A stretch of 64,000 bases of DNA from a virus (Duplodnaviria; Caudoviricetes). The DNA is taken from positions 33,815 to 97,814 of IMG/VR virus record IMGVR_UViG_3300011701_000001. One strand, written 5' to 3'. Made by a program: the position numbers and the translations under genes. Positions 293-15,541 of this stretch are shown here, in pieces (position 1 is the stretch's first letter; each line of letters starts with the position of its first letter). The notes beneath the pieces were generated by a model. That model saw only the letters and a program-made list of their open reading frames with translations. It did no database searches and was not told where the DNA came from.

Positions 293-1339
293 TTAAGCGT
301 AAACTGTACCGCGAATACCATCAACTTTCTGAATAGCACCAGCAAGACGAGCTTCAAAAGTGATACCTGAAAGGATACGAGTATTACGAGTAGATGATGG
401 GATGTTGTTAGCGTTAGGAACAACTACACGGATAGGGTCATCAGCAGTTAGGATGTTCATTGCTACAGCTTCATCTAGTACTTCACGAAGTTTAATTTCA
501 ACCATCGAAATACCAGCGTTAGTGTAGTTGATTTTGTTCTGAGCTTTGATTAACCCCCAGATACGTTCACCCGTACGAACTTCAATCCATGTTGCTCCAA
601 GCATTACATCGATGTATTCGCCACCAACCACTTTGTTCTCACCAAAAACAACACTTTCATCTTCTACAGTTGTGTAGTAGTTAGCATTCTTAGATTGCAG
701 GTAAGCTTCTTCTGTTGCTGTATACCCGTCAGCAATAACACCATCAAGCTCTTTGTAAATCCAGACAGCACTACCAATAGGTTCAGCAGAGAATCGACCA
801 ACCCAAGCTGCTTCAATCATTGCATTACTCACACCATCTTTAGTGTAAATACCGAATGATCGATCATAACTTTTAGCTTTTAACTTGCTAAAAATGTCTG
901 TTGTTGCAGCGGTATAAGTTGCAGCATTACTATCACTAAATACATAGAACATACGAGATTGAGTTTCTACATAATCAGCAATTGCTTCCTTTTCTGCATC
1001 CGTAGCAGTATCAGTGATGACATATAAAAACTTATTATACGCTCCTTGTTGACGTACAAGAGCTTCTACGTAAGTTTCACCGTCTTTAACAACACCAACA
1101 ACAACTTTACTAGGTCGAGGGTCTTGAGCAAAAACTCTTTGTGCTGCAATATATGCTACATCTGTTGTTAGAAATCCATCTTCCAACATAGCGGTAGTTG
1201 ATTCATAGATTCTGTAATCTTCATCTGCTGTGAATCGAGTGTGTTTTGTTAAAAATAAGATTGTTTCTAAGTCACGAACAGTAACATTGTTACTTTGACG
1301 AACAATCTCAACCTTAACAACATTATCAATCGTTGCCAT
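293..1339 (-). CDS. tail sheath protein (DUF3383-like)
   Basis: 348 aa; motifs F.Q.PRP, GEYIDV, KI.YT.AG, RLAGAI typical of this sheath family; position before tube. Confidence 0.85.
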   Translation of the reverse strand: MATIDNVVKVEIVRQSNNVTVRDLETILFLTKHTRFTADEDYRIYESTTAMLEDGFLTTDVAYIAAQRVFAQDPRPSKVVVGVVKDGETYVEALVRQQGAYNKFLYVITDTATDAEKEAIADYVETQSRMFYVFSDSNAATYTAATTDIFSKLKAKSYDRSFGIYTKDGVSNAMIEAAWVGRFSAEPIGSAVWIYKELDGVIADGYTATEEAYLQSKNANYYTTVEDESVVFGENKVVGGEYIDVMLGATWIEVRTGERIWGLIKAQNKINYTNAGISMVEIKLREVLDEAVAMNILTADDPIRVVVPNANNIPSSTRNTRILSGITFEARLAGAIQKVDGIRGTVYA

Positions 1340-2427: not shown

Positions 2428-3492
2428 TTAGATTAATTTTGACACAGTAACTTCAATATTGGAGATGGACATTGCTCTACTATAAGTTTTAACTCTAATT
2501 GTTAACCCATTAGTTGATAAAGGTGTGTCACCATATATTACTGTACTGAAATTCATATCCTGAATTAAGCTGTCACCTCTTACTAAACGATCTTCACTGT
2601 AAGGATTTTCTGTTGTGTCCTTACTCATTGAAATGTTAATGTAATCCGCCTGTGATCCAGCTTGAACTTTAAATCTAACTCGCACAGAATAAAAACCTTG
2701 TGGGTCTTGTAATAAGTATTTCTGTGTTGTTGGGTTATAGAATGTAGTAACCGATGTAGGTAAGTTTGTTTCAAGTTTAACACCAGCACTATTAGGTAAA
2801 ACAACCTGAGTGTTAGTGGCAATAACTAAAGGGGAGGCATCTGTATAAACACCATCTTTATAACTTGCCCAACCATATTGCTTAGGTGGTGTATCAGATG
2901 TTACTGTTGTTGTGTCTGTATAAGTAACTGTTACTGACATATCAGGGTTGAAAGTGATAGAAGAAACTGTTCTACCGTCTTCACCATCCTCACCCTTATC
3001 ACCTTTTTGACCCTGAATACCTTGCAGTCCTTGAATACCACGAATATCAGTAGCTAATGCAATATCAGAAACTAATCCAGATGAGCCTAAATATAAACCA
3101 CTTGCAGGAGGTGTTCCAGTACCACCAGTCCAAGAATCAACCCTAACAACTCTACGGTTATTATCTGCTACAACAGATAAGACAGGAGACCAACCATTGA
3201 AACCTTGATCACCTTTGTCGCCTTTAGCTCCTGTAGCACCCTTAGCTCCAGTATCCCCCTTTTCACCTTTCTCCCCTCTATCACCCTTAGCGCCAGTAGC
3301 ACCTGTTGCACCTACAGCACCAGCATCACCTTTTTCACCTTTAAATATAGGTTGTAAGGCTGTTGTGAAATCTAAGCGAGAAATCTTTTTAGCATCTGTT
3401 CCATTATCAATAGCAAATAAGAAGTCGTTTGCTGTAAACTCTTCTGCTGTCATTGTTGGTAAATCACCAACTCTAATTTCACCCGTTGCCAT
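2428..3492 (-). CDS. collagen-like (Gly-X-Y) fibre/whisker protein
   Basis: Long GEKGDAGAVGATGATGAKGD and GIQGLQGIQGQKGD repeats; located in neck/tail region. Confidence 0.75.
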   Translation of the reverse strand: MATGEIRVGDLPTMTAEEFTANDFLFAIDNGTDAKKISRLDFTTALQPIFKGEKGDAGAVGATGATGAKGDRGEKGEKGDTGAKGATGAKGDKGDQGFNGWSPVLSVVADNNRRVVRVDSWTGGTGTPPASGLYLGSSGLVSDIALATDIRGIQGLQGIQGQKGDKGEDGEDGRTVSSITFNPDMSVTVTYTDTTTVTSDTPPKQYGWASYKDGVYTDASPLVIATNTQVVLPNSAGVKLETNLPTSVTTFYNPTTQKYLLQDPQGFYSVRVRFKVQAGSQADYINISMSKDTTENPYSEDRLVRGDSLIQDMNFSTVIYGDTPLSTNGLTIRVKTYSRAMSISNIEVTVSKLI

Positions 3493-13289: not shown

Positions 13290-13940
13290 TCATAAGGATT
13301 TAACATAATGACCATATAGCAGTCTATATGAATCTAAACGAGACAGGTTTGACAGGTTTTTAATATAGTCTGGATAACTATCTAAAATCTCTATATTGTC
13401 TTCACATGTACCGTGAATAACCTGAACACCATCATAAATACAACCATTCTTTTCTTTGTCGAACTCATAATAATCTTCGTGTTCTACTAAATAAGGTTTA
13501 ACAAGGTTAAAGATGAAACCTCTGTCCTTTGTAGAGTTTGTATTCATGATAAGTTGTTTATTACTTCTTTTGGAGAAAAATTCTAATGTGTAAGCTTCAT
13601 CAACTTGACTTGCATTATCTACGAATGTGTAATCAAACTTTCTACCAACAAGTTCTTCTGGTGTTAAAAAAGATAACGTGGCACCATTCTTCATAATAAG
13701 AAATAACTCTGGTTTATTCTCATAATGAATTTCTTTCGATAGAATTTCTTTAGAGGTGGTAAACACTCCACCATATGTTTTTAGGTCTGGTTTGTTTCTC
13801 ATGACTACAGCACAAGAATTACCTTCTAATAAATATTTTTTTAACTTGAGCAGTCCTGTATAAGAACCACCTTTTCCTGCACCACCTGTATAGATGACAA
13901 CAGAAGCTCCACTGTTTAAAAACAGTTGAATACTCTTCAT
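13290..13940 (-). CDS. terminase ATPase-domain paralog, degenerate active site, no nuclease domain
   Basis: Colinear with TerL N-domain (SYTGLLK identical, GA..SFL, DN......PDY...L......RLL.G); Walker A GGS, Walker B DN. Confidence 0.8.
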   Translation of the reverse strand: MKSIQLFLNSGASVVIYTGGAGKGGSYTGLLKLKKYLLEGNSCAVVMRNKPDLKTYGGVFTTSKEILSKEIHYENKPELFLIMKNGATLSFLTPEELVGRKFDYTFVDNASQVDEAYTLEFFSKRSNKQLIMNTNSTKDRGFIFNLVKPYLVEHEDYYEFDKEKNGCIYDGVQVIHGTCEDNIEILDSYPDYIKNLSNLSRLDSYRLLYGHYVKSL

Positions 13941-13976
13941 TTTAAATATCCTTAATAGGAAGTTAATATTTTGTTG

Positions 13977-14231
13977 TTAATATAACGTACTCTTAAACAC
14001 CAACATGTCCAAAACCTCTTTAGAGAAACCTACGTGTCTCTCAACCTCTATTCCTTGAGATTCTAAACAGATTGTTGGAACATTCTTGACTTTGTTGTTC
14101 TTCCCTTCTTCTGGGGATTCATCAACATCGACAATTAAATATTTCATGTAAGGGTAATACTTATCAAGATACTTAATTGTTTGAGCACAAGGAGAACACC
14201 AATGAGAAACATATATCTTCATTTCAAACAT
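13977..14231 (-). CDS. thioredoxin-like protein
   Basis: WCSPC active site, VDVD, VPT cis-Pro motif. Confidence 0.85.
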   Translation of the reverse strand: MFEMKIYVSHWCSPCAQTIKYLDKYYPYMKYLIVDVDESPEEGKNNKVKNVPTICLESQGIEVERHVGFSKEVLDMLVFKSTLY

Positions 14232-14254
14232 TGTATTGTCCTTGCATTTAGAAT

Positions 14255-14950
14255 AAAAACACAACACTCACAACACAGGAGAATCGTACACTGAGTTACC
14301 TTTATAATCATTATGTAAGGCTTATTTTATTCGATGTGTGTACTATGTGTGAGGTTGCTAGGAGTAATCGTAAATAAATTTACTCAAAGTAATCGTTGTC
14401 AGTCTTTCCTGACAGTCATCTTACCTATTGCAAATCCAATCACGTTATGGAAGGATAGGTTGTGTTACCTTTCGATAAGACATTTAAAAGCATTCTGTTC
14501 CGAAGAACAACACCTCCGTCAGTACGTGACAACCGATAGATGTTTTTCACACATTACCTAAATTACAACACGTTGCAACTAAGATTAGTAATGTATTTTT
14601 CAATCCGCATTTAAAGTGGCGGAACACTCACAATCCAAGCAGAGAATCAATTCTTGTGCAAGGTTGCTAATGACCTAAGATACCAAACTAACCGCGCTTG
14701 GGGTTAACCTTTATGTACTTCTACAAAAGCTCTTAGGTGCTACTGAGTCATGCCTAAACGGCTAAAATGTTGTCAGTTATTAAGGACTCTGACAAACCTG
14801 ATGGTAACTGCTACTTACCCTGTGTTATTCCACTCTTATCGTGATGCCACACAGTTCGGCTGACACAGGCTCAATTTATGTTTAAACTCAGCTTGAGCTA
14901 ATTAGCGGAGTACCCGATTCAGAACGTCAATTTGATAAGCCCTGAATCTT
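14255..14950 (-). ncRNA. candidate large structured non-coding RNA (~700 nt)
   Basis: No credible ORF; about 16 helices; C(UUCG)G and GAAA tetraloops and G-U pairs read on minus strand; downstream of consensus promoter. Confidence 0.7.
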
Positions 14951-14954
14951 GTTC

Positions 14955-15053
14955 TTAAAACAAGAAAATGTAGTAAGGGTAAATAGAGTAAAATAATACT
15001 GAGATAATTAAAAACCAGACAATTACTTTCTCCCAAGTTGTTAATGCTCTCAT
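14955..15053 (-). CDS. 32-aa single-TM peptide (not in ORF track)
   Basis: MRALTTWEKVIVWFLIISVLFYSIYPYYIFLF; weak SD (GAG). Confidence 0.5.
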   Translation of the reverse strand: MRALTTWEKVIVWFLIISVLFYSIYPYYIFLF

Positions 15054-15084
15054 GTTATCTCAATATAATTTAATATTTTATTAA

Positions 15085-15236
15085 ATAAGGAATCCCTGCT
15101 TACCAATTACGTGAAGGATTCCGAAACTTTGAATTAAATGCCACTTCACGTAGTAGCCACGTTATCCCATGTGGAAGTTAATCTCATGACAGGGAGTAAT
15201 TGTTTATCTATTGCGACAGTGTTTGTCGTCTTGATA
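15085..15236 (-). ncRNA. structured 5' leader/small RNA with alternative folds
   Basis: Begins at predicted TSS; several helices, competing terminator-like stem. Confidence 0.5.
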
Positions 15237-15242
15237 AAGTGA

Positions 15243-15271
15243 ATCATACAGAAGTTGAATGTCTATGTCAA
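15243..15271 (-). promoter_or_regulatory. sigma70-type promoter
   Basis: TTGACA-17-TATGAT. Confidence 0.85.
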
Positions 15272-15349
15272 TACCTTTACGTAAAAACAATAAAAGTATT
15301 TTTTCAATAGGTTTTAACAATAATATTTAATTATTTATTAAATATTATA

Positions 15350-15541
15350 CTATTCCAATAACCACCTTTCTTTTGTAATTAAATCAACACTAATCATATC
15401 TTTAACACATGATAGCACCAATAAATCTTCATCTTTATGTTGTACACCCATTAGAGAATCTTCTAAAACCATAAAGTTAAACTCTACAGTGTAATCAACT
15501 TCCAATTGCAACACCTTATCTAAGTTGTATTTATCAATCAA
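15350..15541 (-). CDS. hypothetical protein
   Basis: Coupled ORF in gene run. Confidence 0.55.
   Translation of the reverse strand: MIDKYNLDKVLQLEVDYTVEFNFMVLEDSLMGVQHKDEDLLVLSCVKDMISVDLITKERWLLE

Follow-up and report, generated by a model that had tools for sequence, protein, structure and literature searches.

The stretch at positions 14255-14950 belongs, with a probability of about 0.6, to a ~1-kb minus-strand RNA island in an Acinetobacter myophage related to BS46, an island organized like a tRNA array and composed of independent modules, one of which, here called the core, would be a strongly selected RNA gene. Comparison of its homologues presents the core as a bona fide RNA gene, conserved, folded, present in a single copy and under strong purifying selection, and its status as a new small RNA family without an Rfam counterpart appears well supported by the same alignments. 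The DNA analysed (hereafter the window) is a 64,000-nt stretch of an IMG/VR virus record, 97.8 kb long and carrying direct terminal repeats, whose closest cultured relatives are the Acinetobacter myophages BS46, Ab3-TPeters (Ab3) and MD-2021a, of 92-96 kb each.

Genomic context of the RNA island

On the upstream side, the next ORF ends at 15350, which leaves an ORF-free gap of ~1.1 kb whose distal 700 nt correspond to 14255-14950. The GC content is 0.40-0.42 across this region, against 0.30-0.33 in the flanks. The gap is bordered and occupied by the following elements, apart from the RNA modules described below:

15243-15271, minus strand: sigma-70-like promoter TTGACA-17-TATGAT (11/12 match), with a predicted start near 15236
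15054-15236, minus strand: 5' leader
14955-15053, minus strand: gene for a 32-aa hydrophobic peptide, MRALTTWEKVIVWFLIISVLFYSIYPYYIFLF, between the promoter and the 14255-14950 stretch
13977-14231, minus strand: thioredoxin-like gene (phrog_22 thioredoxin domain), the first gene downstream of the island
Downstream genes, minus strand, in order: thioredoxin-like, 216-aa TerL-like paralogue, endolysin, two small ORFs, TerL and portal

Near-consensus promoters occupy the equivalent place in L004, a close IMG/VR relative (TTGACG-17-TATAGT), and in BS46 (TTGACA-18-TATAGT). Within the leader, 15134-15235 is 99% identical in L004, and the fold of 14951-15236 has a z of about -2.5 on either strand. 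The 32-aa peptide is kept at the amino-acid level, with 29/32 residues in L004 and 24/32 in Ab3-TPeters, where it is annotated as a CDS. At the other end of the island, the likely start of the thioredoxin gene is the ATG at 14231, preceded 7 nt upstream by AAGGA, in agreement with the 84-aa homologue of L004.

Two further observations concern this neighbourhood. The 216-aa ORF (13290-13940, minus strand), with the thioredoxin gene on one side and the endolysin gene on the other, matches the large-terminase family phrog_979 in the N-terminal (ATPase) part of that family (E 3e-16) and looks like a truncated paralogue of TerL; the complete TerL (505 aa) is found 1.4 kb beyond it, and the related locus L010 carries a 50%-identical homologue of the short ORF. 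Moreover, the islands of BS46 (L003), Ab3 and MD-2021a open with a leader unlike that of the window. In BS46 (L003 3545-3610, minus strand), this leader displays, by eye and again in the four-way alignment, a long hairpin, CACCACUCUU...AAGAGUGGUG, with UAUUUUU after it; the element may be an attenuator preceding the tRNA genes.

A conserved core RNA

The sole block common to all relatives (14395-14545) lies within the core, which is made of the following elements:

14384-14545, minus strand: core structured small RNA, ~150 nt, supported by covariance model R1 and covariation
Pa, in the core, minus strand: about 10 bp, including a conserved A-C mismatch, closed by an 8-nt loop, UGUCACGU
Pb, in the core, minus strand, optional: UUCG-capped, in three sequences (GUUC-UUCG-GAAC in the window, GCC-UUCG-GGC in L010)
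Pe, in the core, minus strand: GNRA-capped (GAAA, GUGA or GAGA), with fully covarying stems
Pc, in the core, minus strand: ACCUAU/AUAGGU, with variants CCAA/UUGG and CUUAG/CUAAG, an inner UCCA/UGGA and a 9-nt loop, UAACGUGAU
Pd, in the core, minus strand: UGUCAG/CUGACA with loop GAAAGA; variants include GCUAG/CUAGC and GAGAG/CUCUC

The core alignment comprised 22 sequences, for which the structure was drawn by hand and followed by model-guided alignment; L027 is the 23rd locus. The resulting model R1 (146 positions, 31 pairs) scores 127-172 bits at all 23 loci, with one strong copy in each of the six genomes or records searched. The paired cells amount to 94.8%, and two-sided changes were observed at 14 pairs, compared to 8.4±1.6 in shuffles (0/500 reach this value), although many of the 23 loci are closely related and these shuffle statistics are therefore inflated by kinship. 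When the partners were slid by 1-3 columns, the pairing fell to 28-37%. Pe displays four to five pair types at two positions, and such a variety of pair types is hard to explain without real pairing, even among related sequences. In addition, RNAalifold independently predicts the hand-drawn helices, and two linkers, CUUUUAAA and AAGNUGAC, are conserved between them. The core alone is thermodynamically unexceptional (z -1.2). Pa or Pd is flagged as a candidate terminator in BS46 and L014 by the terminator scan, but the U-tracts are not conserved.

The sense strand of the core is the minus strand, because of its GNRA and UUCG tetraloops and of its many G-U pairs, which would be A-C on the other strand. 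An earlier note on this DNA had reached the same strand from the UUCG and GAAA hairpins and the promoter, all of which are present where it placed them, and the strand-biased folding described below agrees with it. It had also found no credible ORF, and indeed no frame is conserved across the region nor open across the core homologues. The sole sizeable ORF (14334-14561, plus strand, 75 aa), which overlaps the core, is open just in the window and one relative, and a protein-coding reading was rejected, as most homologues have stops in every frame.

Database searches agree with the novelty of the core. At the gathering threshold, Rfam cmscan gave 0 matches in the whole window, and at E<=10 over 13900-15400 it retrieved eight chance-level matches (six microRNA models, CRISPR-DR45 and U4), none of them relevant; the ROOL, GOLLD, Phage_pRNA and RF00005 models had no match in this interval at the same threshold. 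Self-cleaving ribozymes (hammerhead, twister, pistol, hatchet and HDV-like) likewise gave no Rfam match at E<=10. We found no account of the core motif or of BS46-like RNA islands in the literature, the PMC10690425 catalogue of 10,006 viral candidate RNAs lying outside this comparison, so a prior listing there is possible.

Three candidate motifs were rejected. A hammerhead-like core was discarded because CUGACGG and CUGACGC depart from CUGANGA at the essential A9 (alignment, by eye). The conserved CUUUUAA, which is identical to the anticodon loop of tRNA-Lys(UUU), was discarded as an anticodon-loop mimic, as its flanks form no conserved stem, such a stem is missing from the window, and those bases serve the outer helix of Pe. 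Finally, a second pseudoknot, pairing CUUUU with GAAAG of the Pd loop, is lost in the sequences whose loop reads GAAUAG.

Distribution of the core and position relative to tRNA and late genes

The core was found in 23 loci from two distant lineages of Acinetobacter phages (TerL ~34% identical). Exact-pattern scans with two invariant motifs retrieved 8 viral and 14 metagenomic loci, to which a loop-independent pattern added L027. The exact-pattern scan of 185,579 prokaryote genomes (one per species) and the blastn search against plasmids both gave 0 matches, and blastn of the phage collection, using the window region and the second-lineage core, located the core in the Acinetobacter phages BS46, Ab3-TPeters and MD-2021a only. 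The second lineage consists of one 82-kb complete genome and mostly wastewater contigs. Between the two lineages, the core shares about 70-83% nucleotide identity with that of the window, compared to 30-34% amino-acid identity for TerL and portal. The core RNA is thus much better conserved than the surrounding proteins, which implies an important role.

Of the 23 loci, 11 carry same-strand tRNA genes at most ~1 kb from the core, mostly upstream and, in L005 and L007, just downstream. The equivalent gap of BS46 and Ab3 carries minus-strand tRNA genes, and tRNAs were the sole Rfam matches on 20 related loci. The setting agrees with that of ROOL and GOLLD, the core lying near phage tRNA genes as those RNAs often do. 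The genome of the window differs from its relatives in this respect: ARAGORN found 0 tRNA in the window, and RF00005 found 0 in the complete genome (97.8 kb), against matches in all 14 control genomes.

Among these neighbours, a tRNA-like gene is located ~80 nt past the core in L005 (1299-1364, plus strand) and L007 (1422-1487, plus strand), scoring 45.7 bits over positions 4-67 only of the Rfam tRNA model. ARAGORN misses it. Inspection by eye shows a mismatched top of the acceptor stem and an anticodon loop of CACUAAU (CUA, amber-reading, position 33 being A). The gene shares ~80% identity with the annotated tRNA-Lys region of phage Herod. The first ORF past the RNA island of the second lineage is in all cases a Cys-rich protein of 73-86 aa (MSGRCTCCN..., followed further on by a CxxC), for example in L014 (439-666, plus strand) and L005 (1405-1656, plus strand), and a conserved TCATCAATAAAATTATAAT element ahead of it may be a promoter.

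Wherever a locus extends far enough, the core lies upstream of the TerL/portal block and shares its strand. If the core and its neighbours served the late operon (lysis and packaging) as a leader in cis, modulating antitermination, mRNA stability or processing of the downstream message, this would account for the arrangement, and also for the result of the terminator scan, which, with a loop limit that leaves out the 14261-14358 hairpin, found no internal terminator in the stretch and no canonical one between the core and the thioredoxin gene. Nevertheless, the gene next downstream of the core varies between a thioredoxin, an endolysin, the Cys-rich ORF and a tRNA-like gene, at a distance from about 80 nt to nearly 900 nt, and L010 carries the thioredoxin gene on the upstream side of the core. 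Such varied downstream genes, together with the order in L010, argue against a dedicated cis-regulator. In addition, the island of the window closes with a terminator-like hairpin and a U-run, and the combination of Pd and a following AUUUUAUU receives a terminator-like score in some relatives. A role as leader of the late genes is therefore doubtful.

A mosaic of modules around the core

The earlier note had interpreted the whole stretch as a ~700-nt, densely structured RNA tiled with helices, either a divergent member of the ROOL/GOLLD type or a new class. All 16 helix/loop motif pairs that it listed are found in the DNA, but their density is ordinary for this genome: the stretch contains 21 6-mer inverted repeats, which ranks 26th among 91 equal tiles of the window, and 17/300 shuffles reach 21. 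The folding of the 696 nt surpasses that of dinucleotide shuffles on the minus strand (z -3.0 to -3.1) but not on the plus strand (-1.2 to -1.3). The shuffled-MFE check proposed at that time thus succeeds for the full-length minus strand and fails for two of five sub-blocks, which are at chance level. The signal is significant in 14910-14955 (z -5.1), 14546-14626 (-2.9 to -3.2) and 14796-14950 (-2.6), and no significant folding was detected in 14626-14795 (-0.9), 14700-14800 (-0.2) and 14255-14383 (-1.5). From the promoter side to the thioredoxin side, the core is surrounded by the following modules:

14916-14948, minus strand: hairpin GAUUCAG/CUGAAUC, just past the stop codon of the peptide; z -5.1, with 0/200 shuffles as stable
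14796-14915, minus strand: lineage-specific module common to L004 only (94%); z -0.9 alone, -2.6 with the 14916-14948 hairpin
14679-14795, minus strand: optional module in the window and MD-2021a (88% identical), missing in L004 (blastn breakpoints), with folding at shuffle level
14626-14678, minus strand: module UAGCAACCUUGCACA...UUGUGAGUGU, common to L004, MD-2021a and, at another position, Ab3
14546-14625, minus strand: two hairpins, UCCGC-loop-GCGGA (14604-14623) and ACAUUAC...GUAAUGU (14551-14594); z -2.9 to -3.2
14362-14385, minus strand: small hairpin GAGUAA/UUACUC, identified from its sequence alone; relatives have the conserved 3' flank UUGAGAAGUGAAU here
14250-14358, minus strand: terminal module, a long imperfect hairpin (14261-14358), one base, then UUUUUAUUCU

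Aligned with BS46, Ab3 and MD-2021a, the gap resolves into conserved blocks split by large indels and rearrangements. The flanking segments of L004 are about 93-99% identical to the window, yet L004 is entirely devoid of 14679-14795 and adds ~400 nt between 14367 and 14398. The 14916-14948 hairpin is present in Ab3 and L004, with its pairing mostly maintained and no U-tract after it, and the 14604-14623 hairpin is retained in Ab3, L004, BS46 and L010; a single compensatory change turns CCGC/GCGG into CCAC/GUGG. The terminal module (MFE -23.6 kcal/mol, z -1.7) is 97% identical in L004, and the end of the island is formed by its long hairpin and UUUUUAUU, immediately before the ribosome-binding site of the thioredoxin gene. 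The terminal module is probably terminator-like. A similar patchwork of optional conserved modules surrounds the core in the second lineage, many of them ending in a like hairpin followed by CAAUUUUAUUGAGAAG.

Some modules also share sequence with each other. The 5' 15-mer of the 14626-14678 module is repeated at 14346-14360, and its 3' end motif, GUGAGUGUU, is found near 14264-14272. The same ends are thus present on two modules (14264-14275/14626-14636 and 14346-14360/14655-14669), in the form 5' UAGCAACCU(C/U)(A/G)CACA ... UUGUGAGUGU 3', and a third version of the UAGCAACCU...UUGUGAGUGU frame occurs at another position in Ab3. These ends look like a common frame around different inserts. 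Inside the ~400-nt insert of L004, a weak and diverged second copy of the core (2735-2906, minus strand, 19.4 bits) retains AAGGUAUGAC, a GGAAAGAC-looped hairpin and a Pc-like stem, with different loops. Just upstream of the core in the second lineage, GGUG..GACCUU..CACC..AAGGUC shows interleaved complementarity in an H-type pseudoknot pattern (L005 ~1020-1060, plus strand, and the same place in L006, L012-L014, L016, L020 and L022-L024); in L022 both strands of its second stem are lengthened together (GACCUCU/AGAGGUC).

This mosaic bears directly on the interpretation of the ~700 nt as one large ornate RNA, of the ROOL/GOLLD type or of a new class, in which a conserved core and a variable periphery would fold as a unit. 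The full-length minus-strand z of about -3 is consistent with it, as is the prediction of no internal terminator, and GOLLD also combines a conserved 3' part with a variable 5' part near tRNA islands (10.1101/2024.12.08.627333). In contrast, the window departs from a near-identical relative by whole blocks of 117 nt and ~400 nt, the order is changed in Ab3, and several blocks fold at shuffle level. The long-range helices are not conserved: CCAAGC/GCUUGG, one of those listed earlier, is mismatched in MD-2021a and missing from Ab3, and the comparison of relatives found no conserved long-range helix at all. Covariation confirms the helices listed inside 14397-14540 and extends to nothing beyond these limits. 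Furthermore, in relatives the core is flanked by tRNAs instead of these blocks, and the assignment to ROOL or GOLLD fails, as neither model matches even at E<=10. The region does hold a real structured RNA, as had been claimed, but ~150 nt alone are conserved beyond close relatives. A single giant RNA is improbable, since whole blocks are inserted or deleted between near-identical genomes, long-range pairing is not conserved and no ROOL/GOLLD signal was detected.

Complementarity between the Pa and Pc loops

The complementarity between ACGUGA and UCACGU, flagged in the earlier note as a possible loop-loop contact, falls exactly in the loops of Pa and Pc and is invariant in 22 of the 23 homologues. 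It extends to 7 bp (GUCACGU with ACGUGAU, duplex energy -8.8 kcal/mol) and is invariant and complementary in 22/22 aligned sequences. The sole loop variant is L027, in which a U to C change loses the outer pair without compensation. As the loops are invariant, this contact has no support from covariation; a Pa-Pc kissing contact of 6-7 bp, with typical kissing-loop geometry, is plausible. In the metagenomic locus L025 (1792-1947, minus strand), the Pa loop contains UGUCACGUAC twice, a 10-nt tandem duplication that doubles the kissing-loop motif.

Two loops of one molecule that are complementary over 6-7 nt and invariant could also pair between copies, so that the core would self-assemble into a dimer, ring or cage in late infection, for packaging or encapsulation, much as phi29 pRNA forms its ring and ROOL and GOLLD form their cages. 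The core gene stands at the head of the packaging module, and phage RNAs near tRNA islands form homo-oligomers (10.1101/2024.12.08.627333). However, the Rfam pRNA model does not match the core, and the large terminase is of a conventional type here (505 aa, phrog_979), unlike phi29-type motors. The linker between the hairpins is estimated to be long enough for pairing within one molecule. Moreover, the loops are frozen in the core, whereas the loop pairs of phi29-like phages vary from phage to phage. Self-assembly is therefore very improbable; if true, this would be without precedent among myoviruses that have a conventional terminase.

Finally, it is scarcely credible that the sequence is a DNA-level element, such as a pac site, an origin or inverted repeats bound by a protein, or a non-functional relic of tRNA genes that have decayed. 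The position adjoins the packaging genes, a DNA inverted repeat is also formed by TCACGT and ACGTGA, and this genome is devoid of tRNA, unlike its relatives. However, compensatory changes preserve the pairing as the sequence shifts and the GNRA/UUCG tetraloops and G-U pairs are strand-specific, neither of which is expected for a DNA site. The core has no tRNA-model signal at E<=10, and it co-exists with intact tRNAs in relatives and is therefore no relic of them.

A model for the island

The interpretation that we favour remains an array of independent small RNA modules. The sigma-70-type promoter (15271-15243) would drive the leader, the gene of the 32-aa membrane peptide and a string of independently folding RNA modules, ending at the terminator-like hairpin and U-run (14358-14250), before the thioredoxin, endolysin, TerL and portal genes. 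The island occupies the slot where related phages keep their tRNA genes, its modules being gained, lost and moved as whole blocks. Transcription would presumably produce a polycistronic precursor, from which the host RNases that mature tRNA precursors may release the core as a stable RNA of ~150-170 nt. The core could then fold compactly through the intramolecular loop-loop contact, with the GNRA loop possibly docking on the invariant CC/GG pairs of Pc, and it could act in trans in late infection, where its invariant loops and linkers would bind a conserved partner. We infer the excision by RNases, the compact folding and the role in trans by analogy with tRNA precursors and with the RNAC and RNAD of phage T4.

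Comparison with known systems

The closest parallel to the island as a whole is found in tRNA precursors and phage tRNA arrays, which share its locus, its strand and a strong promoter at the head. The size of its modules, from one to two times that of a tRNA, and their gain and loss as units are also reminiscent of these arrays, but the modules of the window are not tRNAs according to ARAGORN and the Rfam tRNA model. A seemingly giant structured region can thus be an array of swappable small RNA genes, which matters for the annotation of phages and for the reading of long ORF-free stretches.

phi29 pRNA resembles the core in its size of roughly 120-170 nt and in having two mutually complementary loops in one molecule, which the core also displays next to the terminase and portal genes. 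In contrast, the core has no Rfam match, belongs to a myovirus with a conventional TerL, and its loops are invariant, without covariation.

ROOL and GOLLD lie near phage tRNA islands (10.1101/2024.12.08.627333). As with these RNAs, the core is phage-encoded, non-coding and beside tRNA islands, being found within tRNA arrays, and its loops are suited to RNA-RNA contacts. The differences concern the scale and the organization: 500-800 nt in those RNAs compared to a conserved unit of ~150 nt here, whose surroundings are a swappable mosaic and not a conserved architecture. No single conserved multi-domain fold of >500 nt, with long-range covarying helices or pseudoknots, was found in our comparisons.

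The RNAC and RNAD of phage T4 are encoded beside the T4 tRNA genes, and, like the predicted RNA of the core, they are small phage RNAs in a tRNA-gene context. Both T4 RNAs are small, stable, of unknown function and expressed late (PMC9697503). The presence of the core in cultured, therapeutic-type Acinetobacter phages (BS46 and Ab3-TPeters) makes genetics and biochemistry feasible, and its architecture, with four helices, one arm capped by a GNRA loop and a possible kissing loop, is simple and testable. Together, these comparisons suggest that the core adds a compact, covariation-supported family of ~150 nt to the RNAs of phage tRNA islands represented by GOLLD, ROOL and T4 RNAC/RNAD.
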